Of a stretch of DNA of 32,000 nt, positions 1 to 27,416 are shown one piece after another. Each line of letters begins with the position of its first letter. Positions within the stretch are counted from its first letter, which is position 1. The DNA comes from Microcoleaceae cyanobacterium (GTDB lineage Bacteria > Cyanobacteriota > Cyanobacteriia > Cyanobacteriales > Microcoleaceae). Below the pieces are notes generated by a model. The model worked only from the letters and a program-made list of their open reading frames with translations, was not told the origin of the DNA and ran no database searches. A program made the position numbers and the translations under genes. The stretch lies in NCBI GenBank assembly GCA_049649525.1, contig JBARZE010000026.1:40246-72245 (forward strand). The letters are read 5' to 3'.

Positions 1-3000
1 AACTGTAACAAATCCTGCCCAACTTGAAAGTCTAAAATAAGCTGATAACCCTCACCTGTAACTAAGACAAACTCATCTTGTCCTGCGCCTCCGGTTAAGG
101 TATTTACCCCAACACCACCAGAGAGTAAGTCGTTGCCATCTCCACCGATGAGGCGATCGCCATCTTCTCCCCCAGTCAGGGTATCATTTCCTAAACCTCC
201 ATCAAGGGTATCTTGTCCGGCATCTCCGGTTAAACTGTCCTCTCCGGCTTGACCATACAATTGATCGTTGTTGTCACCTCCGCTGAGAGTATCTTGACCA
301 TCTCCGCCATCGAGTAAGTCGTTATCGCTACCACCAGATAACAGGTCATTGCCGTCATCTCCCAGTAAGATATCTTTGCCGTCTCCCCCGTCGAGAAAAT
401 CATTATCCTCGCCACCATCAAGATAGTCATGTCCCATCTCTCCGCTGAGGGTATCATTACCCGACTCACCCCAGAGAGAATCTTTACCCTCCCCTCCGGT
501 AAGATAGTCTAAACCCTGGCGACCATAAAGTTTATCGTTTCCGGCATCCCCACTGAGGAAGTCATCATCTTCGCCACCATCTAAGAGATCGTGACCATTT
601 CCGCCGTTGAGGTTATCAATACCCGCTTGGCCCCAAACTTCATCTTGACCATCTCCCCCTTGTAACAAGTCATTGCCATTGCCACCGTCGAGGATGTCAT
701 GTCCTAAACCACCCCAGAGGCTATCAGGATTGTCATTACCCCAGATGAAATCATTCCCTTTACCCCCATACAAGCTATCCTCTCCTTGGCGGCCATAAAG
801 GTCATCATTGCCGTCTCCGCCTTCGAGATAATCGTCATCAGCCTCACCGTCGAGAAAGTCATTGTGGTTTCCGCCAAACAGACTATCTTTTCCGATACCG
901 CCATAGAGGATATCTTTACCTCCCTCCCCATATAAGGCATCTATTCCGGCTTCCCCTTTGAGGGTATCATCACCGCTACCTCCGGAGAGATAATCATCCC
1001 CATCACGACCAAACAGTTGATCTTTGCCTTCACGACCCGAGAGAAAATCATCTCCCAGACCGCCATCTAGGTAGTCATCTCCCCGACCGCCATCTAGGTC
1101 ATCTGCGTCAGCTTGACCATACAGGGTATCATCTCCGGCTTCTCCCAATAGGGCATCTTCCCCTTTGCCACCGTCAAGGAAATCATCCCCAGCTTGGCCA
1201 TCAAGGTCATCGTTACCCTCACGACCCATGAGGCTATCATCTCCTTTGCCGCCAACGAGGTTGTCATCCCCTAAACCGCCGTCAAGAGAGTCATCACCAT
1301 CGCGTCCGTCAAGGTAGTCATTCCCCCCAAGTCCGCTTAATTTGTTATCCTGGTTATCTCCAATTAAGCGATCATCAAATTCTGACCCTTCTAAGTTTTC
1401 AATTTCCTCATAGCGATCGCCTTGGGAGTCTCCACTAGGGCCGCTACCGCCTGTAGTTAGGTCTGCGATCACACCGCTGTCGGAGTTGTAGAAAGAGGCT
1501 GTATCATCCCCGTCTCCTCCATTGATGAAGTCAGCCCCCTGACCGCCGACAATAAAATCATCACCGCGATCGCCATAAATAGTATCGTTATCTTTGTCTC
1601 CATATAAGCGATCGTCAGCTTCACCCCCGCTGAGGGTATCCTCTCCATCGTTACCAAAGACTATATCTTCTCCATCATCTCCCCACAACAGATCCGCGCC
1701 ATTGCCACCATAAAGACTATCTTTTCCTGCATCTCCATTAATATTGTCGTTGCCGTTATCGCCGTAAAGTTCGTCTCTACCCAGGCCGCCAGAGAGAGTG
1801 TCATCACCGTTGTTACCTTCGATGAAATCGTCTCCTTGGTTACCATCAATTAGATCTTTACCGCCATCTCCTTTAAGAATGTCATTGTCTTGGTTACCTT
1901 GAAGAGTGTCATTACCTAAGCCACCGGAGATATTATCTTCTCCAAGTCCACCCTCTATACTGTCCCGACCATCATTACCTTCGATGATATCGTCTCCGCC
2001 ATCGCCTGTAATTTGGTCATCTCCGCCATCGCCTGTAATATTGTCATCGCCATCGTTACCCGCGATCGCATCATTACCTAACCCACCGGAGATATTATCT
2101 TCTCCTTCATCGCCTGTAATATTGTCATTGCCATCGTTACCTGCGATCGCATCATTACCTAAGCCACCGGAAATACTATCATCTCCACTATTCCCTTCAA
2201 GTTGATCGATACCTTCCTCACCAAAAATCAGATCTTGATCGTCTCCTCCACTAATATAGTCATTTCCTACACGACCGTACAGAGAATCATCACCATATTC
2301 TCCATAAATACTATCGTGACCAAAGCCACTATCACCAAATATCAGGTCATTTCCGTAGAAGCCCCAAATTTCATCGTCTCCATCTCCACCAGTAATATTG
2401 TCATCTCCATTTCCTCCAAAGATCAGGTCTTTACCACCTTCTCCTCTGAGATAGTCGTCCCCATCATGTCCCTCTATTTCATCCCAACCATTTCCGCCGT
2501 ATATAGAATCATTGCCACCATCGCCGTGAATTTTATCAGATTCATCTTCTCCGTAAAGAATATCGGATTGATCTCCACCGCTAATAAAATCTAAACCTCC
2601 TCCTCCATGTATTTCGTCTTGACCTTGATGACCGTGAATAATATCATTTCCCTCTCCACCATCTATGTAATCATCACCGCCGTTTCCTTGTAGTTCGTCC
2701 CAACCATTTCCACCACTTATATAATCATTACCACCGTCGCCGTGAATTTTATCAGATTCATCTTCTCCATAAAGAATATCGGATTGATCTCCACCGCTAA
2801 TAAAATCTAAACCTCCTCCTCCATGTATTTCGTCTTGACCTTGATGGCCATGAATAATATCCCCTCCCCCTTGACCATGAAGGAAATCATCACCACCATT
2901 ACCGTTAATCTGATCGATTCCATCACCACCATAAAATATATCGCGTTTGTGATCGAAGCCGTTCATCACATCCCCATAAAGTGAAGCTTGGATTATTTCT

Positions 3001-4274
3001 ACATCTAAAACAGTGTCCGTAGTTCCCCAACCATCATTAATCTCGTAAATATCAACTCCTGCAATTTGACTGGGATTGACTACAATTCCTTGCAGAGTAA
3101 GAGAACTAGAATAATCAGCGGTATCAATTGCCTCTCCACCATCAAGTAAATCGTAACCAAAACCACCTATCAGTTGATCGTTTCCCCCGTTGCCTCGCAA
3201 TACATCATTCCTGTCTTCTCCTAATAACCCATCATCAATCTGACTTCCTTCTATCCAGTCATCATCTTTAGTACCAGATACAGAAGATGAACCAGGAGCT
3301 TGAATGGGTTCGTTAGGAAAATAAAATCCTTGTGGCTGTAACTCATATATAAAGCTTTTGACAGAAGACTGTGTTTCTGGATATCCTAAATATGTACTGG
3401 GCGACGGATTAGCACCACCAAGAGCGTGACCGTCTGTCTCACTGAAAGCCTTGTCAAATTGGCTAAACAAATTTATTAACGCCGATCCAAACTCAATCGA
3501 ATTTGGTATTAGGAAGTTATCAAATTGAAAGTTAACTAGCGGGTCGTCGGTTTTTTTAATATTGGCAACCTCGTATTCATCAACATCAGAATAACTAGTC
3601 TGAGAACCCATTGCTATAGTTCGGACTCGTGCTGGGTCGAACTCACCTGATTTCAACCCATCTTCTATAAAAAAGTTGCCCTGAGAGTGAGATATAAAAA
3701 CCACAGAATTTTTTTCATTTTTTAGTAAATCTTGTACTTGAGGAACCCAGATATTATTTTCAACATTACTGGCATCTTCCCAGTCAAAAACATACTGAAA
3801 AAAAGCTTCTGCTAAATCGCCAAGTAGTCCTATGCTGGCTATTTTATCTATTACTTCAGAACTACCTAGATATTCGATAGCTGCTTTTGCTCCCAATTCC
3901 AGAGAAGGAAAATCTGTGAGCAAGCTCTCATTTTCTAAAAGACTTCTTGCGTAGCTAACAAATTCATTAAGTCCATCCTCTAAATGCTGTATGGCGGACT
4001 CATTATGATGCCAAATGTACTCAATAGAACTCGATGAGTCTGATTGATATGGAGATGAAAAAGGTGATATTCCATCAGAAAAATTTTGACCATTAAGTGA
4101 AGAATCATTTAATTCTGAGAAAAAATTAAACGCATCTCCAACATTTTGAGTGTGATCGTCAAAAGTTTGGTTGGTTCCCCTTAAACCATTTATCCAAAAT
4201 ATATAAGTCTTACCATTGCTCTCTCGAAGTTGATTATAAACATATCCGAATTCTGAATCAGCTTTATATAGCAT
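1..4274 (-). CDS. Large RTX (hemolysin-type Ca-binding repeat) protein with an N-terminal lipase/esterase-like alpha/beta-hydrolase domain; the 3' end runs off the window
   Basis: Absent from the ORF track because no stop codon lies in the window. The reverse frame is open from ATG 4274-4272 to position 1, with AGGAGG at 4284-4289 (9-nt spacer). My translation starts MLYKADSEFGYVYNQLRESNGKTYIFWINGLRG. A nucleophile-elbow motif VVFISHSQGNFF lies at ~3675-3692 (HSQG). From ~3230 downward the frame is continuous GGxGxDxLx nonapeptides, e.g. LRGNGGNDQLIGG and LYGGNGADLLWGDDGED. The last residues are TGGAGQDEFVLVTGEGYQLILDFQVGQDLLQ. Confidence 0.85.
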   Translation of the reverse strand, partial: MLYKADSEFGYVYNQLRESNGKTYIFWINGLRGTNQTFDDHTQNVGDAFNFFSELNDSSLNGQNFSDGISPFSSPYQSDSSSSIEYIWHHNESAIQHLEDGLNEFVSYARSLLENESLLTDFPSLELGAKAAIEYLGSSEVIDKIASIGLLGDLAEAFFQYVFDWEDASNVENNIWVPQVQDLLKNEKNSVVFISHSQGNFFIEDGLKSGEFDPARVRTIAMGSQTSYSDVDEYEVANIKKTDDPLVNFQFDNFLIPNSIEFGSALINLFSQFDKAFSETDGHALGGANPSPSTYLGYPETQSSVKSFIYELQPQGFYFPNEPIQAPGSSSVSGTKDDDWIEGSQIDDGLLGEDRNDVLRGNGGNDQLIGGFGYDLLDGGEAIDTADYSSSLTLQGIVVNPSQIAGVDIYEINDGWGTTDTVLDVEIIQASLYGDVMNGFDHKRDIFYGGDGIDQINGNGGDDFLHGQGGGDIIHGHQGQDEIHGGGGLDFISGGDQSDILYGEDESDKIHGDGGNDYISGGNGWDELQGNGGDDYIDGGEGNDIIHGHQGQDEIHGGGGLDFISGGDQSDILYGEDESDKIHGDGGNDSIYGGNGWDEIEGHDGDDYLRGEGGKDLIFGGNGDDNITGGDGDDEIWGFYGNDLIFGDSGFGHDSIYGEYGDDSLYGRVGNDYISGGDDQDLIFGEEGIDQLEGNSGDDSISGGLGNDAIAGNDGNDNITGDEGEDNISGGLGNDAIAGNDGDDNITGDGGDDQITGDGGDDIIEGNDGRDSIEGGLGEDNISGGLGNDTLQGNQDNDILKGDGGKDLIDGNQGDDFIEGNNGDDTLSGGLGRDELYGDNGNDNINGDAGKDSLYGGNGADLLWGDDGEDIVFGNDGEDTLSGGEADDRLYGDKDNDTIYGDRGDDFIVGGQGADFINGGDGDDTASFYNSDSGVIADLTTGGSGPSGDSQGDRYEEIENLEGSEFDDRLIGDNQDNKLSGLGGNDYLDGRDGDDSLDGGLGDDNLVGGKGDDSLMGREGNDDLDGQAGDDFLDGGKGEDALLGEAGDDTLYGQADADDLDGGRGDDYLDGGLGDDFLSGREGKDQLFGRDGDDYLSGGSGDDTLKGEAGIDALYGEGGKDILYGGIGKDSLFGGNHNDFLDGEADDDYLEGGDGNDDLYGRQGEDSLYGGKGNDFIWGNDNPDSLWGGLGHDILDGGNGNDLLQGGDGQDEVWGQAGIDNLNGGNGHDLLDGGEDDDFLSGDAGNDKLYGRQGLDYLTGGEGKDSLWGESGNDTLSGEMGHDYLDGGEDNDFLDGGDGKDILLGDDGNDLLSGGSDNDLLDGGDGQDTLSGGDNNDQLYGQAGEDSLTGDAGQDTLDGGLGNDTLTGGEDGDRLIGGDGNDLLSGGVGVNTLTGGAGQDEFVLVTGEGYQLILDFQVGQDLLQ
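2027..2188 (-). repeat. In-frame tandem duplication inside the RTX gene, period 81 nt (27 aa), each copy carrying a HIP1 site
   Basis: catcgcctgtaatattgtcat...gcgatcgcatcattaccta starts at 2027 and again at 2108. The HIP1 sites at 2062 and 2143 are exactly 81 nt apart. Confidence 0.85.
2483..2861 (-). repeat. In-frame tandem duplication inside the RTX gene, period 216 nt (72 aa, 8 nonapeptides)
   Basis: Segment 2483-2645 is near-identical to 2699-2861 (cccaaccatttcc...gaataatatc), with only a few substitutions seen by eye. Confidence 0.85.
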
Positions 4275-4363
4275 AACTTAGACCTCCTATCATGTTTAGC
4301 AGTCATTAAATGAAACTTACAAGTGACTTGATTATCTTTTAAAGCATCTCAAGTAAGTGATGC

Positions 4364-4597
4364 TTATAAATCTTCTTTAATTACTAGTACTTTAAACCGA
4401 GATAATGCTTCAAAATTCCCTGTAACCCACTGTTGCTGTAACGTTTCTAACTTATCGGTATCAAAGTTGTTGCCAAAAACCTGCTGACTCTTGAATATAA
4501 AATCTTCGCTATTAGCAAATTCTTGCAACCATCCGTAAGCATCCTCAAACCCAGTTATTACTAAATTATTTGCAATTGCAGGATTCGGTAAAGACAT
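4364..4597 (-). CDS. Small protein (77 aa) resembling the N-terminal leader module of large cyanobacterial RTX proteins; sits directly upstream of the RTX-lipase gene
   Basis: ORF-track protein contains LQEFANSEDFIFKSQQVFGNNFDTDKLETLQQQWVTGNFEALSRFKVL. From memory this matches the F-A-x-S-x-D-F ... F-G ... L-R-x-x-W-x-x-G-D-F-S-x-L-P-x-I-E-V-L pattern at the N-termini of cyanobacterial Ca-binding repeat proteins. Same strand as the RTX gene, 90 nt upstream of it. Confidence 0.5.
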   Translation of the reverse strand: MSLPNPAIANNLVITGFEDAYGWLQEFANSEDFIFKSQQVFGNNFDTDKLETLQQQWVTGNFEALSRFKVLVIKEDL

Positions 4598-4738
4598 AAT
4601 TTATGACCCCTGAATAAATTATAAATTCGCATTTAACCTTCTCTAAACCCTAATTGTTATTAGAGTTTATCTGGTCGTTGATATCGCTGATGAAGTCACA
4701 TTTAAACAGTATATAAATACACAAGTCAAGTGTTTTTT

Positions 4739-4799
4739 TGTGAATATTTTTGTGTACTTTAGAGGGTTTTGTGTAGGATTTTGTGTATAATTCTGTGTA
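4739..4799 (+). promoter_or_regulatory. Array of five phased TTTTGTG(T/A)A direct repeats in the divergent intergenic region upstream of the HTH-STAND gene
   Basis: TGTGAA at 4739 and TGTGTA at 4751, 4770, 4782 and 4794, giving spacings of 12, 19, 12 and 12 nt. The array ends ~24 nt before ATG 4823. Confidence 0.45.
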
Positions 4800-4822
4800 G
4801 AGTCGATTGAGTAGAGAGAGGA

Positions 4823-6260
4823 ATGACTCCAAAGCAATTTGAAATTAAGTTCAATAACTTATCATCTAGAAAAAAGGAGATATTAGAAAAACTATTAGCA
4901 GGAGAGAGTGATAAGACAATCGCTAAATCACTCAATATAGTTGAAAATACTGTTAGACAAAATATTGCTAGTATTTGCAATACTTTTTTAGGGAAAGCAG
5001 TTATTTCGGGTAAATGTAGGCGCGATGAATTAGTTGATATCTTCCAAAGACATAAGCCTGAATGGGTGAATTTGGATGATGATATTGAGGATCAAGTAGA
5101 GATTGATTTAGATCAAAGTTTTGATATTTCAGATAATAGTACTTCGGTTTTAATTAGTGATAATTCTGTTAATTCGGAAGGAAATCAAGAAAATAATAAT
5201 GTTGAAGAGAATAGAGAAAGTAATCAAATTGAAAAAACTTTAAGGGAGAAAACCAATTGGCAGCAAAAAAGACTATTTGGTATTGATAAAATACTTGATA
5301 AATTGGGGGATAATCTCCGAAGTCCTGATGATTATTGGTTGATGAGTTTGACGGGTGCAGGCGGAATTGGTAAAACGTCTTTAACTGAAAAATTAATTAG
5401 TGAATATGGGGAAGATTGCGGTTTTGTTAAGTTGGCTTGGACTACAGCAAAAAAAAACTTATTTAGCGGCGGATATGTCGGTGCAAATCGAAAATAATAG
5501 AAGAGATATTAATGCAGATAGTATTATCTATGATATTGCTTCACAGCTTGAGATTAATTTACCACCTGCTAACAAAGATCACTTCAAGGCACTGCAAAAA
5601 AAGTTACAAGCAGATCCTTATTTAATTGTGATTGATAATTTAGAAACGGTATCAGAATATGAGCGTCTTTTGGATAGATTTAATCCTTTTCAACCCGAAT
5701 GCAATATTAGACCCAGCAAGATAATTTTGACTTCTCGTAAAGATGTAAAAGCGAATAATTGTGCAGCCAGAGAAATTAAATTGAAGGGTATAGATCCCTC
5801 AGCAACTTTAGAGATGATTCGATATCAAGGTCAAGAATTAGATGTGATTCAACAGGCTTTAGATGAAACATTATATCCAATATATGATAAAACACAGGGC
5901 AATCCTTTGATGATTTTATTGGTAATAAATTTATTGAAAAAATATGATGAGCCGTTAGAAAGAATATTTCAAAGATTTGACAAAGAGCAAAATATTCAAG
6001 CTTTTTTATATGAAGAATCATTAGATTCACTCTCTGATAGTGCGATACGGGTTTTAAATTCGGTAGCTGAATATAGTCCTAATAGTTTAATTTCTCGCTT
6101 GAATATTCAAGAAACATCCGGTTTAAATGATGATGAATTTACACAAGCTATCGCAGAATGTAGCAAATCTAATCTGTTAGAAAGTAGTCAGAGTATTCAA
6201 TCAGAATCTAGATATTCAATGCATAGTTTACTTTATGAGTTTTTAACAACATATTATTAA
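4823..6260 (+). pseudogene. N-terminal LuxR/GerE-type HTH fused to an NB-ARC-like STAND P-loop ATPase, split into two ORFs by a frameshift in an A9 run (5449-5457)
   Basis: HTH: LSSRKKEILEKLLAGESDKTIAKSLNIVENTVRQNIASI. Walker A LTGAGGIGKTSL lies in ORF 4823-5497. Walker B YLIVIDNLE and KIILTSR lie in ORF 5400-6260. Removing one A from the 9-A run joins ...KLAWTTAKK to TYLAADMSVQIENN. Confidence 0.75.
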
Positions 6261-6267
6261 TAAGAAC

Positions 6268-7617
6268 ATGAGCAGAAAATCTTTAAAAGAAAGATTGCGT
6301 CAAAACAAGCCCGATCCAAATCGTCATTTTGCTGTTCTTCTGTCAAAATCAGAGATAGAAATAGATTTAGATCATGTAATTACAGCCTTAAGAAAACACT
6401 ATAATAAAACTCAATATTTACAGAAACGTTCTCAATTACTTAGTCAGTTTATTGATAAAGCTTTACGGATTTTTACGACAACTGAAGCATGGCTTTATGA
6501 GATAGATCAACTCATTGAGGAATATCAAACTAATTCAATCAATTTACCCGCTATTTTGTATTACAATAAGTTTAAATGTTTAGCCAATTTATCAGTTTCT
6601 CATCCAAAGGCAGAGTTTAATCTCAAAAAAGCGATAGCTTTAGAAACTAATTTACATAATAAAATTGACTATCAAATTTATCTAGCAATATATTATGAAA
6701 ATACGAGTCAATTTAAAAAAATACCGAAAATTCTTAATCGCTGTGAAATACTATGTCGGCAAAATCATAATTTAGAAAAGCAGTTAGGTAGAACTTTGCT
6801 TTATCTAGGACATTATTATTTCTATACATTTCAATTAGATAAAGCGGCTGATTATATGAATCAAGCAACAAATATTTTACTTGCTATATTAAAAACAAAA
6901 GAAAAAGAAAAAAAAGAAATTTTACAATTATTGAATAGCTGCTTTCATTATTTAGGTCGAGTTTATTTAGCACAATATAATTTTGCTGAAGCCGCTCAAT
7001 TCTATATCAAAGCTCAATATTTTCTAGAAAAAGCTCGTGATGAATATACATTAAGTAATGACTTGGGTGCTACTGCTTTTTATCATTTAAGATTAGGTCA
7101 GATTTTAGAAGCGAATCAATTAATTGAAAGCGCAGATTATCATTATCAGAAAAGTCAAAATATATTTATTGACTGCGGTAATCTTTCGGGTCAAATGCAA
7201 GTATCATTAGCAAGAGCAAATTTAATCGGGAGTTTTGTTGATAATTCTAATTATAATAAAAAAGAGCTTTTAGAAAAGCAAGCTCAACAAATCTGGGAAG
7301 CGGCTATTGATGCAAAAGCAATAGGATATAATCGTGGCTACTTAGAAGCTTTATTACGACTATTTTTGCTCAATATAAAAAAAGGCAGAATAAGGGATTT
7401 AATTAAAGTGGGTTTTGCTATTGTGACAACTTCTGAATTTTATAAATTTATTTTTAGCAATCCCAATCTATTGATATCTAAATTACAATTAGCTCTAGGA
7501 TTGTATGGTATGGGGCCTTATCATGAAGCAAGATTATACAAGTATAAAAAACACCAACCTCACACTATTCTAGAAGCTTGTCCCTGCGATGAATGCAAAG
7601 ATAGAAAATTGAAATAA
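6268..7617 (+). CDS. TPR-like helical-repeat protein, probably the detached sensor arm of the upstream STAND ATPase
   Basis: 449-aa ORF starting 7 nt after a TAATAA double stop. TPR-like units include LGRTLLYLGHYYFYTFQLDKAADYMNQA, CFHYLGRVYLAQYNFAEAAQFYIKA and AFYHLRLGQILEANQLIESADYHYQKS. The C-terminus carries CPCDEC. Confidence 0.6.
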   Translation: MSRKSLKERLRQNKPDPNRHFAVLLSKSEIEIDLDHVITALRKHYNKTQYLQKRSQLLSQFIDKALRIFTTTEAWLYEIDQLIEEYQTNSINLPAILYYNKFKCLANLSVSHPKAEFNLKKAIALETNLHNKIDYQIYLAIYYENTSQFKKIPKILNRCEILCRQNHNLEKQLGRTLLYLGHYYFYTFQLDKAADYMNQATNILLAILKTKEKEKKEILQLLNSCFHYLGRVYLAQYNFAEAAQFYIKAQYFLEKARDEYTLSNDLGATAFYHLRLGQILEANQLIESADYHYQKSQNIFIDCGNLSGQMQVSLARANLIGSFVDNSNYNKKELLEKQAQQIWEAAIDAKAIGYNRGYLEALLRLFLLNIKKGRIRDLIKVGFAIVTTSEFYKFIFSNPNLLISKLQLALGLYGMGPYHEARLYKYKKHQPHTILEACPCDECKDRKLK

Positions 7618-14025: not shown

Positions 14026-14221
14026 TGTTGCTAATTGTAACTTTAGACACGATTTCAATTATCTCTACATTTTGTCTTGAAAGCGGGTTACAGAATCTTT
14101 AGTTTATTTAAAAAATGCGTAGCAGCAGTATTCCAGTCTAGAAAATAATCTTTAAGAATTTGGAATTGAGTTCATATAATGGTGAAGTATAAAGTATCAT
14201 CCTTAATCGCTACCTGAACTG

Positions 14222-16265
14222 ATGGAACCCATAACTGCTACTGCTATTATTACCCTTCTCTCTACCAAATTTATTGAAAAAGCCACTGACAAGCTGTCAG
14301 AAGGGGGAGTACAAAAACTCAATGATCTGCGTCAACTGATATGGCAGAAAGTACGAGGACAGGCAAAAGTAGAAAACGCCCTGAAACAAGTTGAACAAGG
14401 TTCAGAGTCAGAATTAGACGTTCAGCCTGTAGCTGCATTTCTCGAAACCGTAATGACGCGATCGCCTGAATTTGCCCAACAAGTTCAAACCCTTGCCCAG
14501 GAAATTAACCAAGAAATTAATATTGATATGCCCAACGCTAAAGGTGTTCAGAATGTCTTCGGTGGTGAAGCTTATCAGTCTATTAAAAATCAAGGGCCTA
14601 CCTTTCATGGTAGTAATCATACCATCACTTTTAATTGACTAAACTCGTCCGAACCGGATCGGACAAAGTTAACTCCCCCTTATGAAAACTTAGGGATACG
14701 CGGTATTGCTGAACGCGATAAATTTGTTGGACGCGATTCTCTTGACAGAGAGGCTACGCCAACGCACACTCGTAGATCTTCATCAATTATTGCAGCAAAA
14801 TACCCAAGTTGCGATCACAGCAGCGGTTATTGGTATGGGCGGAGTAGGTAAAACAGAACTTGCTATTCAATACGCCCGTCAACACCTGGAAAATACTTAT
14901 ACAGGCGGCGTATGTTTCCTGACTGGCAATAGTTTTATCTTGGAGTTAATTCAATTTGCCCGTCCTCGCTTCTTCCCGAAGATGGACTTTAGCGGCTTTT
15001 CGGAAAAAGAACAATTAGACTATTGCTGGACACATTGGGCGGAAGGGGAAGTCTTGTTAATTGTAGATGATGTCACAAACTACAAACAACAGGTTAAACC
15101 TTATTTACCCAGTTCTCCTCGGTTTAAAATATTAGTGACCACGCGAGAACAGATCTCTAACGTTACTCCTCTCAATTTAGAAGTTCTGCATTCCGATGAT
15201 GCCTTAAAATTACTTGAGTTTATCATAGGGAAAAATCGCATCGACGCAGAAGCCGAAACTGCAAAAGAACTCTGTCAATGGTTAGGTTATTTACCGTTAG
15301 GCTTAGAATTAGTCGGGCAATATTTAGCAGAAGATGAAGATCTGTCCTTGGCAAAGATGCTGCAACGCCTGCAACGTAAACGCCTACAACATTCTTCCCT
15401 AAAAGATGCAGATACAGCAGAAACCGCAAAATTAGGAGTTGCCGCAGCCTTTGAATTAAGCTGGGAACGGTTGCAACAACAACCCGAAACGCAACAATTA
15501 GGATGTTTATTATCCCTATTTTCTCCCGATGCAATATTGTGGGAATTAGTAGAAGCAGTATATCTCTATTGGCAAGGAGAAGATATTGATCTCGAAGATA
15601 TTGAAGATAGTAGACGCAAATTAGTTAAACTCAGCCTATTTCAACGAAGCAAAGAGAAAACCTATCGCCTGCATCAACTGCTACGGGAGTTTTTCCGCGA
15701 CAAACTGGAAGAACGAGAAGATGCAGCGGCAATAAAACAAGCTTTTGTCACCACAATGGTTTATATTGCCCGTCAAATTCCTCAAGATATTACCACGCAA
15801 CAAGTTAAATGGGTTGAACCCTTTACTAAACATATTGAAGAAGTAGCTAATAGTTTCACTGAGTTGTTACCTAATAAAGATTTAATTGCAATATTTACTC
15901 CTTTAGGTTGGTTTTATCAAGATCAAACCTTGTATTCTGAAGCTGAACTATGGCTGAAGAAAGGGGTAGAGATCATAAAAAGCCGTTTCGGAGAAGAACA
16001 CAATCACGTTGCCCTTAGCCTGAATAACTTAGCTCATATTTATCACTCTCAAGCACGTTACAGGGAAGCTGAACCTTTGTTTCAACAGGCTTTAGAAATG
16101 TATCAACGGCTATTTGGAGCATATCATCCCGATGTTGCCACCAGCCTGAATAATTTAGCTCATATTTATCACTCTCAAGCACGTTACAGTGAAGCTGAAC
16201 CGTTGTTTGAAGATGCTTTAGAAATGTATCAACGGCTATTTCAAGCAGACCATCCTAAATCTTGA
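14222..16265 (+). pseudogene. NLR-like STAND gene (helical N-terminal domain, NB-ARC, kinesin-light-chain-type TPRs) disrupted by an in-frame TGA and a frameshift, and truncated at the 3' end
   Basis: ORF 14222-14638 ends at TGA 14636-14638. The same frame continues LNSSEPDRTKLTPPYENLGIRGIAERDKFVGRDS with no start codon. The NB-ARC body (LHQLLQQNTQVAITAAVIGMGGVGKTELA, LLIVDDV, ILVTTR) is one frame over, so the shift lies between ~14740 and ~14775. TPR units are LNNLAHIYHSQARYREAEPLFQQALEMYQRLFG, present twice. The last unit breaks at HPK (~16258). Confidence 0.75.
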
Positions 16266-17866: not shown

Positions 17867-19226
17867 ATGAAAAATACGATTATGACCAATACCGTTAAAA
17901 AAGCATCTTCTTTACCTCCAGGAAACTTAGGTCTACCTCTCATTGGCGAGTCTATCCCATTCTTCAACGATTCAAATTTTATTGATAAGCGTCAAAAAAA
18001 GTACGGAAAGATTTTCAAAACTAATATTTTTACTCGCCCTACCATAGTCATGATAGGCTCCGAAGCCAACCGATTTTTATTTACCAACGAAAATAAATAT
18101 TTTTCTGCGACTTGGCCTGCTAGTACTAAAACTTTGTTAGGAAAAAATTCTCTATCTGTGATAGGAGGAGCTATGCACACTCAACGTCGTCAGCTCATGT
18201 TTGAAGCTTTCAAACCTAGAGCATTAGCTAGCTATCTACCCACAATAGAAGCTCTGACAACTCGTGATCTCGAAAAATGGACACGCATGGGGACTTTAAC
18301 CTGGTATCCCGAATTGAGAAATTATACTTTCGATATTGCAAGCAAGTTATTCGTCGGTAAAGATGGGGGGTCGCAAACAGTTTTAGGAGAGCTATTTGAG
18401 GAGTGGTGTAATGGCTTATTTACTCTTCCCATACGTCTTCCTTGGACGAAATTTAGTAAAGCTTTACGGGCGTCGCACCCTAATGCTAGAAGAAATTGAA
18501 AAAATTATCTTGAAGCGTCAGAAAGAAAAAGATTTAGGGGAAGATGCTTTAGGAATTTTATTGCAAGCTAAAGACGAAGAAGGAAATAGTTTATCTTTAG
18601 AGGAACTCAAAGACCAAGTACTTCTTTTATTATTTGCAGGTCACGAAACTCTTACGTCTGCTTTAGTTTCTTTTTGTCTATTGATGGCGCAACATAGAGA
18701 AATATTCACTCACATTTGTACAGAGCAAAATCGACTAGGAATAGACAAACCACTCAACCTCGATAATTTAAAAGAAATGGTTTATTTAGAGCAAGTTCTC
18801 AAAGAAGTATTGCGTTTCATTCCTCCAGTTGGTGGTGGTTTTCGAGAAGTCATAGAAGATTGCGAGTTTAATGGTTATTCAATTCCTAAAGGTTGGGTGG
18901 TGCAATATGTGGTGGGAAAAACTCATCAAGATAGAGAAGTTTATCAACTTCCAGAAGAATTTGACCCCGAGCGCTTCAGTCTAGAAAGAGCAGAAAATAA
19001 AAACAAAATCTTTAGTCATATACCTTTTGGTGGTGGCGCTAGAGAGTGTTTGGGTAAAGAATTTGCTCGGTTGGAAATGAAAGTTTTTGCTGCTATGTTG
19101 GCACGTCATTATGAATGGGAACTTCTTGCAGACCAAGACTTAACAATGGGTGCAAGTATTACTCCACATCCCCGTGATGGTTTACAAGTAAGTTTTAAAA
19201 AGCAGCAGTGTTCAGCTTCACAGTAG
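17867..19226 (+). pseudogene. Cytochrome P450 (CYP120-like) split by a frameshift near 18470
   Basis: Heme-thiolate motif FGGGARECLGKEFARLE, I-helix LLFAGHETLTSA, and an N-terminal LPPGNLGLPLIGES. ORFs 17867-18499 and 18396-19226 overlap. The sense switches between …WTKFSKALRA and RRTLMLEEIEKIILKRQ. Confidence 0.85.
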
Positions 19227-20892: not shown

Positions 20893-21487
20893 GCGATAGA
20901 CTGGGCGGTAGAGCAACGCAATTTACGCCGCTATGTTGCAGAAATTCATTCACAGTTGGCGTTTCAGAAAGATGATTTCAGTCATGAGCCTTGTCTTAGC
21001 AGTATCGCAGCGTCGGGTGTAAGTGACAAAGTTATTGAGCTTGACACAGTTCGACGCGATAAAGATAACACTCGATCTGCCCTTTTGCCATCATCGGATT
21101 TGAAACCTAGTGAACCTGTAACCACAACAGTAGCGACTGCTAATATTTCTCATAAAGTTGTCGATATTGAGAAGAAGGAAGTGAGTCAGTCTCTACCTGC
21201 ACCCTTCACTACTAGCTCATTACAACAAGCCGCTGGAGATAAATTAAATCTAACGACAAAAACAACGATGAGTATAGCTCAGAAACTCTATGAATCTGGA
21301 TTAATTACTTACATGAGAACGGATTCTTGCTCATTATCTGAGGAATTCTGTTCAGCAGTAAAAGCTTATTTGCAACAACACGACTCACAAAATCTCCCTG
21401 AAGTTATGACTCAACATCGTAATAATAAATCGGCTCAGGAAGGACATGAAGCGATTCGACCCACTCATATTGAGGAGACTCCTGAAC

Positions 21488-22668
21488 CAGAAATGTTGAA
21501 TCGGTCGAGGAATCTATCTAAAATTAGACACACTACACCTATTATCAGCAAATTTTGTCAACAAAAAACGCTCCTTAGGTAACCAATGAACATAGCTGAT
21601 GTTTTCACACATAAAAGCCTGTAAATAACGCAGCTTGTCTAATAATTTATTTCCAAACTCTTTAGGAATTATGACTAATTGCAGCAACACGTAAGCGATT
21701 AAACAGACATAGATTGGAATAGTGATTCTATTAGTATTTTTAGTGATTAAACGGTCGAGTTTAAGATGCATCTTTAAGAACTTCCAGAATAATTCTATTT
21801 GCCAACGTAATCGATCAGATTCTCCCACTTCTTCATTACTAATTCTTTCTACTCCTGTTTCAGGTAAATTGGTAACAAAACGAAATTCAGTTTTGCTTTC
21901 TATCTCACAAAAATTGACGACTCGGGCTACCACTTGCTGACTACCTGTTCCTACTAATAATTGACTATTGTCCAACATTTATAGCCGAATATTGTTTTTT
22001 ATTAAGAATAAAAAATATCTTTGAGTTTCACTCATTAATTTTTCAACTCTTGACAGGCTTGAAAATCCTCTGTCCATTAGACTAACTCCTTTTGATGGAG
22101 TAGCTTCTATCCTAGAGTCTCCATACTTACTATCATGACCTTGGCCAAAATGAATTCAAATACCTCCTGGTTCTGCCGTCAATAAATTCAGACCAGCAAA
22201 CAGTTTGACTTGGTAAAAGTCTTGAGACCATAATAGTTTACTTGTTCAAGTCACAATAGTTGAATCCAATGGGAATAATACTAACTTATCTGACTGTTTT
22301 TTATCAGAAAGTTTTAACTTTTTTCTCAGCTTTAAAAATAAATTATAAAATTGAAGTGGGTCTCGATTTTTGCGCTTCTTTAGAGAAAGTTGAAATATCT
22401 ACCTTTATGCCCCGCACATTTAGGCGTTTAAATAGGCTCCTCATACTCGCGATTGCTTTGATCAAGGGCAAAATTTAGCCAGGTAGAAACAAATAGGAAT
22501 GAACTCAGGACTGGATAATCATCTTGAGGAAGCTCTCCTAGGAGATTTTTGACGAGGTGAGGAAAGTTTGATACCATACAGCTATTAGTTTTTTGAAATT
22601 CATAAGCCTCCAGTCTATCAGATTAGAGGCTCTTTTTTAAGTCTTTTCACTAACATTCAACACTTCTG
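21488..22668 (-). mobile_element. IS4-family insertion sequence (1181 bp) with a decayed DDE transposase, 14-bp terminal inverted repeats and a 9-bp target-site duplication
   Basis: IRL is cagaaatgttgaat (21488-21501). IRR, reverse-complemented, is cagaagtgttgaat (22655-22668). The TSD ctcctgaac occurs at 21479-21487 and 22669-22677. Transposase pieces on the - strand include PLDSTIV, LMDRGFSS and RLRWQIELFWKFLKMHLKLDRL (the DDE blocks), with several frameshifts and stops. Confidence 0.85.
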
Positions 22669-22817
22669 CTCCTGAACATTTAAGTTCATCACTTCAAGGG
22701 CAAGAATTACAGTTGGATGAACTGATTTGGAGTCGGGCGACCGCATCTCTATGTAAGCCTGCCATAGTAGAGAAAACTCAGGTGAAAATAATTGCAGGTG
22801 AGCAGGGCGAAGCCCTT

Positions 22818-22964
22818 GGAAGGCAGAAGGCAGAAGGATGATCCCTCAAACTTATCCTGCTTAGATACAAGCCCTGACTTAAGAAGTCGCTGTAAGTTTA
22901 GTGGGAGTCCAAGCTCCTTCCAAACCAGTGACCCTCTGCCCTCCTCCCTCTGCCCTCTACCCTC
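22818..22964. repeat. Short insertion (147 bp) bounded by inverted heptamer-repeat arms, (GGCAGAA)n and (CCCTCTG)n
   Basis: The left arm is ggaaggcagaaggcagaagg (22818-22837). The right arm is ccctctgccctcctccctctgccctctaccctc (22932-22964). It interrupts the topoisomerase between …VKIIAGEQG and YEYHFLLKGNRI. Confidence 0.65.
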
Positions 22965-23250
22965 GTATGAGTATCATTTTCTGCTTAAGGGTAATCGAAT
23001 TGTAGAGTCTTGTTATGCTAAATATTGGCAGAATTTAGCAGAAGAAAAAGACTTACCTGAATTTATAGTTGGACAGACTTTAGAGTTAGAGAGCGTTCGT
23101 TTAAGTCAACACAAAACTGAAGCGAATAAACGATTTACTGAGCCGAGTTTGGTTAAGACTCTGGAAAAAAATGGTATAGGTCGCCCTTCAACTTATGCTA
23201 CTATTATCAATACTTTAATTGATAGAGCTTATGTGACATTGATTGAACGA

Positions 23251-23471
23251 GGGCAGAAGGCAGAAGGCAGAAGGCAGAAGGATTATAAATTAAGAGATTC
23301 AAACTCGCCACTAATTGTAGACGATCAAATCAAAGATTTTAATAGGGATCTTGTATCTAAAAGTATGAAGCGCGACAATGCAGTCTTAGAAGAAACCCCC
23401 ATGAGTGATTGTCGTAATAAGGGAGAAGAAAAATCAAACCCTCTGCCCTCTGCCCTCTGCCCTCTGCCTTC
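23251..23471. repeat. Second insertion (221 bp) with the same inverted heptamer-repeat arms but an unrelated interior
   Basis: The left arm is gggcagaaggcagaaggcagaaggcagaagg (23251-23281). The right arm is ccctctgccctctgccctctgccctctgccttc (23439-23471). It interrupts the topoisomerase between YVTLIERG and KKNLVVTELG. Confidence 0.65.
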
Positions 23472-24357
23472 AAAGGCGTTGGCGTAGCCTCTCCGCCAGG
23501 AGAAAGCCTGACAAGAAGAATTTAGTCGTAACAGAGTTAGGCTTGAAGGTTGATGAAATTCTATTTCAGGTGGTTCCAGATATTATTAATCCAGGTTTTA
23601 CAGCTCAACTTGAAAAGAATTTAGATGAGATTGCCGATTGTCAATTGAATTGGGAGTAATGGCTAATTGATTGGAATACTCAAACGTTTCAACCTGCACT
23701 GAATCGGGGTAATCAAGTGATTGAGCAAGTCATTTCTTAACAATTAACAGAGTTCGATTGTCCTATTTGTGGTGCTAAGTTGAAGAAGCATCAATATATT
23801 AAAAATAAAGAGTCGAAAGTGATGCTACGTTGTTCTCAATTGGGTAATTCTGATTGTAAAGATGTGGCTTATTTTCAATCAAGGGATTTGTTTTGGAGTC
23901 CTAAATATGGAGATTTGCCGGGGCAGGTTAAACCTCAAAATCAGAATTTGGCTAAGGTTAAACCCGCAACTAAAACTAATACTCCTGTTTCGGGAACAGT
24001 ATCTAGAAGCCCTAAATTAAGGAAATCTCTGTAGTTAAGTGTGTTGCGATGGCGTTGTATTGCGTGACTCAGCTTTTATGACGTAATTCTATTGCCTACA
24101 TCAAGTTTGCTGTTAGTAATATCTTCACGGGGAATATTCCTGTAGTTATCTATCTACTTTTCATTCCCTTTATCACCCCTTGAGATCTCTCTATTCTAGT
24201 AATGAGGTTCTATCTCATAAACCTTTGCAAACATTATCATGCTAGTAATACTTGGAAACAAAGTTGAAGAACCGCCTTCTTGGGCTATTTAGTAATATGC
24301 CTAATTAGTTACTATTAGATTAAGTCTAATTATAAATCAGAGAAGTTGCATTACTTA

Positions 24358-26271
24358 CTATAAACCTTCTCGGGCACCATGAGATAAAAGAAATTCAACC
24401 ATATTTCTATTCTTTTGTTGTACAACTCTATGTAATGGACTATATCCCTGAGCGTCTCGAATATTAATATTCGCCCCATAGGTAACAAGAAGTCTGATAA
24501 TCTCATCATTGCCCAACTGTTGACAAGCAAGAGTAAGAGGGCTACAACTATATCTATTCGTTAAATTGACACTTGCACCAGAAGACAAAATATATTTTAT
24601 TGTCTGTCTATGATTACCTTGCACTGCTTCACATAAAGCACTATTTCCTACTTGATTTATATGATTAATATCGGTATTATATTGAGTTAGAAGCTCTACA
24701 ATATCTTGATGCCCTAAACGGGCTGCCCAATATAGAGGAGTGTTACCATATTTATCTTCTGTGTTGACATCTGCACCATAACTAATCAAAAGCTCACCAA
24801 TATCTCTACAGCTTATGTAACTTGACTCATAACTTACAATTGCCACTTGATGCAAAGGAGAAAACTCAAATTTTCCTGTCTTTTCATTGACTCTTGCACC
24901 CTGATTGAGCAGAAGTTCAATCAAAGTTTTATTTTTATACTTACGTCCAATCGCTGTAATCAACCATGAATCTCCTTTTGACAATCCTTTTGTTAATCTA
25001 GAATTAACATCTATTCCCTGTGCGAGATAAGACTTGACTAATTCTATATCCCCAAGCATCAGAGCAATATCTGGTTCTGTAACAGCATTATTATCTAATA
25101 GAAGTTGAGCAATTTTCTTGTGCTCATTAGAAACTGCTAAGTATAGAGGAGTGCAGCCATCTTTTGCTCTGGCATTGATTTGTGCTCCATTAGTAATTAA
25201 GAGTTCAACTATATTCTGCTCTCCTCGTTGGGAAGCAATATGCAAAGGAGTATAACCGTTATTATCTACAACGTCAATGCTTGCACCATGAGCAATTAGG
25301 AATTGTACAATACTCTCATTCTCCTGTGCAACTGCTATGTGTAATGGACTCAAATTTTGTCTACATCCGCTAATATTAACCTCAGCACCATAGGCAACAA
25401 GAACTCGAACAACTTCATCACCACCTTTACGCTGTAAAGCACGCAGAAGAGGAGTAAAACCATTATTGTCTGTTAAATTGACTTCTGCCCCGTGCTGCAA
25501 AAGAGATCTTAGTGTGTCTGGACAATGATTTTTGGCTGCTCCAAATAATGCACTGGCGTTTTCTTTATTAAGGATATTAACATCAGCTCCGCAATCTAAC
25601 AGAAGTTCTACAATTTCCCGATTTCTTAACAAAGCAGCCTGATGTAAAGGGGTATGACCTCCTGTAGCTTTAGCATTAACATCAGCACCATGAGCAATCA
25701 AAAGGGAGCAAATATCTAGACAATCTATAGCTGATGCTCGATGTAGTGGAGTAACATTATGAGGTTCACTCCTCTCTTGAACATTTGCCCCCAAATCTAA
25801 TAGAAGTGCAGCCATAGCTCTGTTTCTGTTTGTGATAGCTGTCATCAGCCATGACTTACCCTTGTTATATCCTTTTTTTAACTTAGAGTTTACATCTACT
25901 CCCTTTTGTATATATTGCTTGACCAACTCAACATCTCCAAGCATCACAGCGATGTCTGGCTCCATTGTGGCACCATAATTTAGCAGAAGTTTAACAATTT
26001 CCTGATGCTGACCCAGAGCTGCTAGATATATAGGAGTACAGTCATCTTCTGCTTTAACATTAATCTGTATTCCATAATTCAGCAGTATTTTCACTACATG
26101 TATGTGTCCTTGAAAAGATGCTAGATGCAAAGCAGTTTGGCTACGGCTGTCTCTAGCAGAAATATTAGCTCCATTAGCAATCAGTATATTAACAATTTCT
26201 CCATCGCCCTGGTAAGCAGCAATAAGCAATACAGAACCAGTTTTTCTTTGAAAGTTAAACATATTACTCAA
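24358..26271 (-). CDS. Ankyrin-repeat protein (637 aa, ~18 repeats) with an internal ~110-140-aa block duplication
   Basis: ANK consensus recurs throughout, e.g. GHTPLHQAALLRNREIVELLLDCGADVN and GYTPLHIASQRGEQNIVELLITNGAQIN. No signal peptide is visible. Confidence 0.9.
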   Translation of the reverse strand: MSNMFNFQRKTGSVLLIAAYQGDGEIVNILIANGANISARDSRSQTALHLASFQGHIHVVKILLNYGIQINVKAEDDCTPIYLAALGQHQEIVKLLLNYGATMEPDIAVMLGDVELVKQYIQKGVDVNSKLKKGYNKGKSWLMTAITNRNRAMAALLLDLGANVQERSEPHNVTPLHRASAIDCLDICSLLIAHGADVNAKATGGHTPLHQAALLRNREIVELLLDCGADVNILNKENASALFGAAKNHCPDTLRSLLQHGAEVNLTDNNGFTPLLRALQRKGGDEVVRVLVAYGAEVNISGCRQNLSPLHIAVAQENESIVQFLIAHGASIDVVDNNGYTPLHIASQRGEQNIVELLITNGAQINARAKDGCTPLYLAVSNEHKKIAQLLLDNNAVTEPDIALMLGDIELVKSYLAQGIDVNSRLTKGLSKGDSWLITAIGRKYKNKTLIELLLNQGARVNEKTGKFEFSPLHQVAIVSYESSYISCRDIGELLISYGADVNTEDKYGNTPLYWAARLGHQDIVELLTQYNTDINHINQVGNSALCEAVQGNHRQTIKYILSSGASVNLTNRYSCSPLTLACQQLGNDEIIRLLVTYGANINIRDAQGYSPLHRVVQQKNRNMVEFLLSHGAREGL

Positions 26272-26490
26272 CTCATATTAACTATTTTGTAGCTATTTCA
26301 TACATTCAAATTTATTAATTTATTTTAATTAAAAATCAATGATTTGAAACTGAGGATTAATTGTTGAGTCTATATTTTTGGAGGCTACAGAGATTTCCTG
26401 ATTCTTTTTTACACTAAGTTTCAACTGTCATAATTCTCTACCTTATAGCCTCCTTGTTGTTCTTTTAAAAGGAGAGATATAATGCAAATT

Positions 26491-27255
26491 TTATATTAAG
26501 CCAGATAGAAAAGCTGATTTAATATGATGATTCTTAACAAATCCTTCGATTCGAAAAGTTATTCCTGTAAAAGGGTCTATTCCTATACCATCCCATGCAC
26601 CTGTTGGAATGCATTTTTGTTCATATGCATTACCAATCATGTCTATCACACCATAGTCATCTAAATCTATTGGGAAGAAGCTTGATACTTTTTCTAATGA
26701 TGGATGGCTTGGAACTCGAGATTTTGCGGTAAAAGGTTCGTCATAAGCGTTTTCAGGGGGTTCAGTAACCCATTCGTAATGCACCGTTTCAATAGCACGT
26801 GCTGTTGAGTGAAAACCAGAAAGCTCGCCAACTCTAACAGAAGGGAAAAAAATATGATCTTCGTCTATTGTGTAATTACAATTGTTTTCTTCATTCAATT
26901 CTAATACAACTGCTCCTATCATAGATAGACCAACAAGGATGTCAAGTAACTTGAAGGTACTCACCTGCTCTGTGACAGAAATAAATCCTGATGGGTCAGT
27001 ATAGTGAATTGGATTCGCATTTCCATATAAGTACTTATGTAACGTAATTGGCTCAGCTACTCGACCCTCATAAACATCTCGACGAGTAAACCGTCCAACA
27101 TTCCGGTCATAGTAGCGATCGCGTAAATAATACTGTCCTAAATTCCCATCAAATTGCTCCCCTGCAAACAGATAGTTATTCTCAACATCACCCGTAGAAT
27201 CTAATAACTCGCCAAAGGCTTCATAGTTATAGTCAGCAACGCCGGATTTTTTGCT
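26491..27255 (-). pseudogene. Orphan Rhs/YD-repeat C-terminal tip: the end of the Rhs core plus a ~170-aa variable C-terminal (toxin-like) domain, 5'-truncated with no start codon for the core part
   Basis: The reverse frame is open from 27255, just after a TAA. It reads SKKSGVADYNYEAFGELLDSTGDVENNYLFAGEQFDGNLGQYYLRDRYYDRNVGRFTRRDVYEGRVAEPITLHKYLYGNANPIHYTDPSGF. That is the Rhs-associated core end (…GRF…D…LHxYxYxxxNPxxxxDPxG). A unique tail follows, which is track ORF 26491-26964 starting at GTG. Confidence 0.75.
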
Positions 27256-27344
27256 TTATTATGAGAGGAAAATTAATTAGATACTGGTCAACAGAAGTAA
27301 TCGGCTAGCCATAAATGCCTGTAATTAAGGAGTGAAAAATAATT

Positions 27345-27380
27345 AAGAAAAGGTGGGTTTACTTTGCAGCAACCCACCCG
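27345..27380 (-). terminator. Rho-independent terminator closing the two-gene operon
   Basis: On the minus strand: GGGTGGGTT-gctgcaaagta-AACCCACC followed by TTTTCTT. The perfect 8-bp stem spans 27352-27359 and 27371-27378, ~37 nt after the stop at 27417. Confidence 0.75.
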
Positions 27381-27416
27381 ATAAAATTAACAATCGCACT
27401 TTACTGATGTGAAAGT

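Follow-up and report, generated by a model that had tools for sequence, protein, structure and literature searches.

STAND (signal transduction ATPases that have numerous domains) and NLR proteins are normally single chains, and their repeat sensor autoinhibits the ATPase in cis. Reportedly, GutR has the domain order helix-turn-helix (HTH), NB-ARC, tetratricopeptide repeat (TPR). GutR is activated by its inducer and then by ATP, AfsR is activated by ATP binding, and the AfsR/SARP regulators bind direct repeats next to the -10 element (PMC10936776 and, for GutR, work cited therein). On AP-ATPases, the TRADD-N and EAD domains have been tied to conflict systems of multicellular bacteria, and ECF-like HTHs have been named as a possible transcriptional output of such systems, in the sections available to us of the work of Kaur, Burroughs, Iyer and Aravind (PMC8195603, PMC7159879). 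Here we describe a two-gene STAND locus in a stretch of 32,000 nt from a Microcoleaceae cyanobacterium (assembly GCA_049649525.1, contig JBARZE010000026.1, positions 40,246 to 72,245), which was analysed over its full length and is called the window below. Gene A (4823..6260, + strand) encodes a GerE-type HTH, a linker and an NB-ARC STAND ATPase, and gene B (6268..7617, + strand) encodes a 449-aa TPR-like solenoid, the presumed arm and sensor in trans. By analogy with described systems we consider it moderately probable that A and B form a self-contained, NLR-like two-gene switch, ATP-gated and autoregulated, with a transcriptional output and its sensor in trans.

Three open reading frames (ORFs) lie on the + strand in 4823-7617, at 4823..5497 (224 aa), 5400..6260 (286 aa, frame +1) and 6268..7617 (449 aa). 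The first two overlap in frames +0 and +1 and are the two halves of gene A, which is read in frame 0 over 4823-5457 and then in frame +1 up to the stop at 6258-6260. When one A was removed from the A9 run at 5449-5457, an uninterrupted protein A of 478 aa was obtained, and this repaired protein was 62-84% identical to intact cyanobacterial homologues of 472-483 aa over 99-100% of its length. A preliminary description of this DNA had already recognised a single frameshifted gene, but its repaired length of 479 aa has to be corrected to 478.

We observed that the repaired protein A matched Pfam GerE at residues 12-51 (4856..4975, + strand; E=1e-7, 31.9 bits against a cut-off of 23.5), and with NCBIfam residues 8-52 aligned with the HTH regions of CsgD, NarL and FixJ (E 5e-6 to 2e-4). 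The structural model used for protein A was the AlphaFold2 model of P0001, an intact homologue 84% identical to the window protein (predicted local distance difference test, pLDDT, 78.6; P and L numbers are our handles for homologous proteins and loci). In this model the HTH region forms the four helices of a GerE domain (17-25, 30-37, 41-56 and 64-77) at a pLDDT of ~90. The HTH is followed by an acidic, Asn-rich low-complexity linker at residues ~84-135 (5072..5227, + strand). This linker of ~50 residues between the HTH and the NB-ARC differs in length and sequence among orthologues, and its residues 85-131 are modelled as disordered, with pLDDT <50.

The NB-ARC module occupies residues 156-391 (5288..5996, + strand; Pfam NB-ARC E=5e-13, 49.3 bits against a cut-off of 23.5). 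It carries the P-loop GAGGIGKTS at residues 178-186 (5354-5380, + strand) and the Walker B motif LIVIDNLE (5622-5645, + strand), both identified in the sequence and in the alignment. After it comes a winged helix with the invariant histidine of an IHS motif, up to 6257, and protein A ends right there. In 19 homologues the P-loop residues G178, G180, G181, G183, K184 and T185 were invariant, as were LIVID271, TSR305, G359-N-P361-L362 (GNPL) and the MHD-like I-H467-S. The second acidic residue of Walker B is an Asn (D-N-L-E, then T; window 5634-5645), which was also invariant in the 19 homologues, and D271, N272 and E274 remained invariant in a wider alignment of 44 sequences. The preliminary description had read an N-terminal GerE-type HTH (at about residues 10-55), an acidic Asn-rich linker and an NB-ARC-like module with GAGGIGKTS, LIVIDNLE and ILTSR from the letters, and the profiles, motifs and homologue model bear out all three.

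When the P0001 model was compared with known structures by Foldseek, it matched ZAR1, NRC2/3, Apaf-1 and CED-4 (E ~1e-11 to 1e-9), which share the fold of nucleotide-binding domain, helical domain 1 and winged-helix domain (NBD-HD1-WHD). Against the isolated NRC1 NB-ARC, the template-modelling (TM) score, normalised to the NRC1 NB-ARC, was 0.66-0.72. The family profile, run against solved structures, matched Roq1 (4.6e-8) and the archaeal TPR-STAND protein PH0952 (4.7e-4). AAA_16 reached 20.2 bits on protein A, under its cut-off of 32.6. As NB-ARC scored above its cut-off, AAA_16 below, and the fold was that of Apaf-1 and the NLRs, the ATPase belongs to the AP-ATPase/NB-ARC clade and not to the MalT/AAA_16 one. 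The earlier label of an inverted LAL thus fits the layout but not the ancestry, since the best matches are Apaf-1 and plant NLRs. In Pfam neither Trans_reg_C nor BTAD matched the window protein, so that it is not of the SARP/AfsR type, and the sub-threshold AAA_16 and the N-terminal position of the HTH set it apart from the LAL/MalT type. A C-terminal repeat sensor in the same chain, which is typical of the NB-ARC family but not defining for the ATPase clade, was not found; a TPR-like protein was encoded separately in 17/17 closer loci. Neither NCBIfam nor PADLOC gave a family-level assignment for protein A or B beyond generic HTH, and in a homology search with the N-terminal 86 residues by themselves no candidate had sufficient 5-mers in common.

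For gene B, all Pfam TPR matches were below threshold (TPR_12 E=1e-4; TPR_MalT 15.5 bits against 45). AlphaFold2 models protein B with confidence as a solenoid made wholly of helices (pLDDT 85.7, predicted TM score 0.84), which resembles LGN/Pins, the Rap receptors and other TPR superhelices, in agreement with the separate TPR-like ORF of 449 aa that had been called from the sequence. The junction of the two genes reads TAA TAA GAAC ATG (6258..6270, + strand). The start of gene B had been placed 7 nt after this double stop (6258-6263); counted from the first stop the distance is 7 nt, from the second it is 4 nt. We also noticed a C-terminal ILxxCPCxxxxC(K) motif (window 7560-7600) in nearly all gene B homologues, with C438 and C440 present in at least 90%, which may form a small knuckle that binds metal or has a redox role. 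The 40 residues before it are hydrophobic and are modelled with low confidence.

The two-gene organisation was found in all of the closer loci: in 17/17 an NB-ARC ORF was followed by a separate gene B homologue of 432-468 aa. These loci are from Cyanobacteria (including uncultured Lyngbya sp. metagenome-assembled genomes (MAGs), Planktothrix, Lyngbya aestuarii, Coleofasciculus, Pseudanabaena, Limnothrix and Floridaenema), one Chloroflexota MAG and Actinoplanes utahensis. The junctions in the orthologues ranged from -35 to +34 nt (e.g. +7, +6, -8, -11, -14, -17, -32, +9, +29, +34), with +123 once. As they differ among loci, a single mutation cannot explain the split, and the preliminary idea of a separately encoded TPR arm holds, with no in-frame fusion among the close relatives that would point to a local mutation. 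Genes A and B were the only genes shared by the neighbourhoods of the 17 loci, and the identities of the NB-ARC core and of gene B to the window copies were closely correlated (r=0.97, 14 loci). Gene B is probably translationally coupled to gene A.

We further searched 1.84 billion representative proteins exhaustively with a profile of the gene B family and obtained 264 matches. Those covering most of the profile were stand-alone proteins of ~410-480 aa, except for one protein of 620 aa that matched with its C-terminal part; long proteins matched merely through short generic TPR stretches. In a distant Chloroflexota branch (25-30% identity) most ATPases were ~470 aa long and were followed by an overlapping ORF of ~400 aa, while a few long ones (777-1003 aa) had no partner ORF and carried TPRs from about residue 450-470 on. 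A local jackhmmer search from gene B links these Chloroflexota partners and the fused C-termini; since it drifts to generic TPRs after round 3, it served to locate the TPR regions and not as proof of orthology. The fused and split forms of the wider family thus have the same joint, which supports gene B as the arm and sensor in trans. Taken together, the comparison of loci indicates that the A/B split is real and old.

The N-terminal part of protein A varied in a different manner. The first 100-300 residues differed among relatives, while the NB-ARC and TPR chassis was conserved. A GerE head was present in the window protein, P0001-P0006 and P0012, whereas proteins of Planktothrix, Lyngbya aestuarii and another MAG had a PF26355 HTH-like head (by precomputed annotation), and some relatives had XRE-like N-terminal sequences on the same chassis. 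The head was TRADD-like_N in P0016, L016 and L018, preceded in some by predicted membrane segments, and EAD4 stood at the N-terminus of L019. In three loci an Exo_endo_phos (EEP) gene came as a third gene right after the TPR gene and overlapped it (L016, 8392-9489; L018, 8424-9494; L026, 8317-9393); the first two are of the TRADD-N type, and L026 is a Chloroflexota MAG without an N-terminal Pfam domain. More distant NB-ARC homologues had TIR_2, DUF4062 or PNP_UDP_1 N-termini (~30% identity, with the partner gene outside the check), and the distant homologue P0039 (29% identity) had BTAD and Trans_reg_C. The window copy itself has no adaptor or effector domain of the TRADD-N, EAD, TIR or caspase type, but an HTH in this place, whereas relatives do have such domains. 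Judged from these alignments, the output domain at the N-terminus is exchangeable, and the NB-ARC and TPR chassis that carries it is constant.

We then examined the 225-nt intergenic region upstream of gene A. It contains a candidate operator array (4717..4799, + strand) of five direct TTTGTG(T/A)A boxes at 4737-4744, 4749-4756, 4768-4775, 4780-4787 and 4792-4799, spaced by 12, 19, 12 and 12 nt, with a single inverted copy, ATACACAA, at 4717-4724. The exact 9-mer TTTTGTGTA occurred three times in the window, each time inside the array, and the array was the sole cluster of at least three boxes within 80 nt in the window. A -10-like hexamer, TATAAT (4786..4791, + strand), is found 32 nt upstream of the ATG and lies over box 4; its role as a promoter is inferred. 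It was kept as TATAAT or TATGAT across six aligned orthologous upstream regions, although a consensus promoter scan did not list it, as there was no good -35 with it. No RNA family, and hence no known leader or riboswitch, was found in the whole window with Rfam at the gathering threshold.

Every GerE-type orthologue with a readable upstream sequence had four to five TTTGTG(T/A)A boxes, of which three kept to the conserved 12-nt register. These three were at -56, -44 and -32 from the ATG in 6/6 GerE-type loci, with the inverted copy near -95 to -106; the six loci represent three sequence lineages, 62-84% identical to the window protein and in different genomic contexts. Orthologues that are 62-68% identical and stand in unrelated contexts (L088, L091 and L094) showed the layout as well. 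The box copy number exceeded that of shuffled sequences (p<=0.025), and the invariant columns of the six-region alignment were chiefly the boxes and the -10. Each GerE-type locus had one cluster of at least three boxes per 80 nt, always at the same place, and no such cluster was found in 11 non-GerE loci (~135 kb). The PF26355-type orthologues had a different array, seen in both Planktothrix and Lyngbya aestuarii, of three AAAGTNANT boxes at an exact spacing of 10 nt, abutting TATAGT/TATAAT, with two further copies upstream. This suggests that the promoter boxes and the output domain travel together. The co-variation of box and HTH is the strongest available, though indirect, support for the view that the N-terminal domain would bind DNA at its own promoter. 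Sites of the NtcA or CRP type were also considered as the source of the boxes; by eye, their spacing and half-sites do not fit.

By analogy with MalT, GutR, AfsR and Apaf-1, we propose that the switch would work as follows. Protein A joins its GerE/LuxR-type HTH through the acidic, flexible linker to an NB-ARC switch (NBD, HD1 and winged helix), and B is the TPR-like solenoid that distant relatives bear fused at the same position. B would dock onto A and keep the NB-ARC closed and ADP-bound. A ligand binding to the TPRs of B would free A from this hold, ADP would be exchanged for ATP, and A would then oligomerise. The clustered HTHs could cooperatively occupy the TTTGTG(T/A)A boxes, three of which lie in the 12-nt register across the -10 and the start region, and the module would thereby regulate itself, and possibly unlinked targets too. 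The boxes and the N-terminal output domain would form an exchangeable cassette on a constant chassis. Since the boxes span the -10 and the start region, the balance tips slightly towards autorepression, although activation is also possible on the SARP precedent.

Several points weigh against such a switch. The GerE match spans only profile positions 2-41 of 57. With D-N in Walker B instead of D-D/E, the ATPase activity is uncertain; hydrolysis may be slow, and the D-N-L-E sequence is reminiscent of NACHT proteins with their extended acidic Walker B. Gene A is frameshifted in this genome, and the window copy may be without any function. As the boxes lie over the -10 and the start region, they could be promoter elements or the sites of a co-migrating factor. 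A spacing of 12 nt does not correspond to a helical repeat, and the usual targets of GerE-type proteins are inverted repeats, to which they bind as dimers. A metagenome-wide scan for the triple box (TTGTGWA N5 TTGTGTA N5 YTGTGYA) returned tandem repeats and chance matches among the matches listed, of which 80 loci were read; as none of these encoded the NB-ARC or TPR family, the scan says nothing on a regulon.

The frameshift deserves to be considered on its own. At the A9 site, comparison with the DNA of relatives gave GCAAAAAAAAAC in the window against GC-AAAAAGAAC in the relatives, and the lesion is therefore a lineage-specific G-to-A change together with a 1-base insertion. The Logan assembly of the read set SRR28062651 matched the window at 100% across 9083 bp, with the A9 run included, which shows that the frameshift is not an artefact of a single assembler; the Logan contig and the MAG may share one library, so that a systematic homopolymer error is possible. 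Programmed frameshifting at gene A was considered and ruled out, as the relatives are without the A-run. The 3' half of gene A is annotated by NCBI as P0007, a 284-aa 'NB-ARC domain-containing protein' of a Microcoleaceae MAG, and gene B is 100% identical to P0121, which lies on the same 74.7-kb contig as P0007. Annotated entries like this 284-aa protein are thus pieces of a frameshifted gene. The window copy of gene A is therefore inactive, or made only via slippage on the A-run. As a separate observation, Planktothrix sp. GU0601_MAG3 (CP136572.1; L013, 6255-6275) has its own +1 insertion in the orthologous NB-ARC gene, TTTAGAAACC against TTTAGAACC in PCC 11201. It lies ~20 nt downstream of the position of the window lesion, and could be a coincidence, an assembly error or a fragile spot.

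The frameshift could be a genuine inactivating mutation and the window locus a decaying pseudogene without present function. We regard this as a serious possibility that falls a little short of an even chance. It would be consistent with an A9 tract that is derived relative to all relatives, with the same sequence in an independent assembly of the raw reads, with the separate insertion in the Planktothrix MAG, and with the disruption of the adjoining RTX gene, which has lost ~100 codons and changed frame. The P450, topoisomerase and second STAND genes of the window are likewise in fragments, and such fragmentation of several genes argues for either real gene decay or a systematically error-prone assembly. 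The two halves of gene A and gene B are, however, otherwise intact, with no more stops and 80-91% identity to relatives, and the promoter boxes are kept, which means that the lesion is recent, an error, or tolerated. Slippage on A9 tracts, whether transcriptional or translational, is generally known to restore some full-length product, and the possibly shared library makes a homopolymer error conceivable here as well.

A second alternative concerns the biological role and is compatible with the proposed switch mechanism. A and B could be an NLR-like sensor for conflict or anti-phage defence, in which the TPR protein would detect an invader molecule and the HTH would turn on a defensive or suicidal programme elsewhere. 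We think this possible but unlikely. The preliminary description had also named a defence-type STAND sensor with a DNA-binding output as its alternative. The sister systems with TRADD-N (some with membrane segments), EAD4 or an EEP third gene on the same chassis, and the distant homologues with TIR_2, DUF4062 or PNP_UDP_1, speak for it, as such domains have been assigned to conflict systems of multicellular bacteria in the sections of Kaur et al. available to us (PMC8195603, PMC7159879). The taxa also fit, being filamentous Cyanobacteria, Chloroflexota and one actinomycete, and there is another NB-ARC-TPR gene at a distance of 7 kb. The G+C content of the module is 28-32% (window 4001-7000), against 39.7% in the whole window and ~39-41% in the adjacent valS, and its low G+C and variable context suggest a mobile or recently acquired cassette. 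Against a role in defence, no PADLOC family matched the NB-ARC or TPR protein; with the PADLOC-DB 2.0 profiles (Avs, bNACHT etc.) the HTH weakly matched the CasR and Csa3/CARF-associated HTH models, and gene B had no match. In addition, the TPR sensor diverges at about the rate of the ATPase, unlike hypervariable immune sensors, the flanks (valS, an acyltransferase and the RTX gene) contain no known defence genes, and the HTH-STANDs of known function (MalT, GutR and AfsR) are metabolic or developmental regulators.

It is rather improbable that the boxes are promoter or UP-like elements, or the sites of another host regulator, that move with the 5' cassette. Their T-rich sequence and their position over the -10 and presumed start site would agree with this, as would the 12-nt direct repeats, which are atypical of GerE-family dimers. 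But box sequence and spacing switch with the HTH class while the chassis downstream stays orthologous, and a global host regulator is not expected to change its motif with the N-terminal domain encoded downstream. The boxes are also the invariant columns of upstream regions that have otherwise diverged, in different genomes and contexts.

The gene upstream of gene A and divergent from it (window 1-4597, - strand) encodes an RTX protein of very large size, in which 33 HemolysinCabind stretches were found; in L004 it is a single protein of 2067 aa. This neighbour is common only to the window and the L004/L009 lineage. We observed that the window RTX gene is disrupted: a 77-aa ORF (4364-4597, - strand) corresponds to the start of the L004 protein (73% identity over its first 75 residues), ~100 codons (residues ~76-175) are gone, and the body (<1-4277) is in another frame. 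In the preliminary description it had been suggested that A/B might be the dedicated regulator of this divergent RTX-lipase operon; in that case the array in the shared 225-nt region would control the RTX promoter. In favour of this are the divergent arrangement, with an almost identical intergenic region, in the window and the L004/L005/L009 lineage, and a minus-strand -10-like site at 4618-4623. The suggestion is very unlikely, and synteny does not support it. An FG-GAP/Peptidase_M23 gene takes the upstream place in the closest orthologue (84%; L002/L003), the neighbours in L088, L091 and L094 are AIM24, small ORFs or an ORF of 286 aa without a Pfam match, and across the 17 loci only the A/B pair is conserved. 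The distance of the boxes is fixed to the ATG of gene A and not to the neighbour, and the window has no second box cluster. An effect of A/B on the divergent promoter within this lineage is nevertheless conceivable.

Elsewhere in the window, the second STAND gene is of the fused type, with NB-ARC, DUF7779 and TPR_10/TPR_12 (14694-16265, + strand). It is preceded by a 143-aa helical N-terminal ORF in another frame (14207-14638), its TPR array ends abruptly, and it looks degraded. The cytochrome P450 gene (17867-19226, + strand) consists of two overlapping ORFs, 17867..18499 and 18396..19226, and looks frameshifted. Two fragments of a bacterial DNA topoisomerase, ~1.2 kb apart (Topoisom_bac positions 101-226 and 267-359), lie in 20893-23487 (+ strand) and could be a pseudogene or an interrupted gene. 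The region 24358-31039 (- strand) encodes a 637-aa protein that is almost all ankyrin repeats, followed by ORFs of 634 and 568 aa without a Pfam match.

We suggest, tentatively and with considerable reserve, that filamentous cyanobacteria and Chloroflexota may share a family of two-gene NLR-like switches, each an NB-ARC protein with a TPR sensor acting in trans, in which the 5' cassette of boxes and output domain is swapped as a unit. The same chassis would then drive either transcription, through GerE or another HTH with an operator array of its own, or death-type effectors (TRADD-N, EAD4, EEP nuclease). If so, it would be an example, found in nature and open to testing, in which an NLR chassis of the immune type has been rewired towards transcription, and also a STAND protein whose autoinhibitory sensor is a separate subunit. 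A conserved, separate and co-evolving sensor would offer a simple system for how sensor release drives nucleotide exchange and oligomerisation, and with the predicted operator arrays, which follow the HTH class, the transcriptional output becomes open to direct testing. The swaps of HTH, TRADD-N and EAD4 on one chassis connect the STAND transcription factors (AfsR, GutR and MalT) to the conflict-type NLRs.

Among the known systems, MalT and the LAL regulators resemble A/B in having a STAND ATPase, a LuxR/GerE HTH output and a helical-repeat sensor, and MalT, once it has oligomerised, binds cooperatively to arrays made of short repeated boxes. MalT differs in its MalT/AAA_16-type nucleotide-oligomerisation domain (NOD), its C-terminal HTH and its single chain, whereas protein A has an NB-ARC and an N-terminal HTH. 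AfsR and the large SARPs of Streptomyces have the same order of an N-terminal DNA-binding output, an NB-ARC-type NOD and a TPR sensor. Their output is an OmpR-type winged helix with BTAD in place of the GerE/LuxR HTH, and A/B is unlike AfsR in its long disordered linker and in carrying the TPRs on a separate polypeptide; the box spacing is 12 nt at A/B against 11 or 22 in AfsR/SARP. GutR, the glucitol-responsive activator of Bacillus subtilis, is like A/B in its N-terminal HTH before an AP-ATPase-type NOD and TPRs, a likeness taken from its description only, and by the same description it is set apart as a single polypeptide of 829 aa that is linked to its target operon. PH0952 (a Pyrococcus STAND protein with a TPR sensor; PDB 6mfv), Apaf-1 and the plant NLRs have the NBD-HD1-WHD fold in common with protein A, and differ from A/B in having the sensor in cis and no HTH output. 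The AP-ATPase systems of Kaur et al. (2020/2021) share with the A/B family the ATPase clade, the taxa and the variable N-terminal domains (TRADD-N, EAD4, HTH); those described in the sections available to us have fused C-terminal TPRs, and these sections describe no two-gene split, GerE output or co-varying boxes. Regulators of the HTH-NB-ARC-TPR type and variable N-termini on bacterial AP-ATPases are thus already known, and the A and B proteins are already in the databases. Measured against the parts of this literature at hand, three features appear to be new, namely an NB-ARC with a GerE head, the conserved organisation in two subunits and the HTH-specific promoter arrays.

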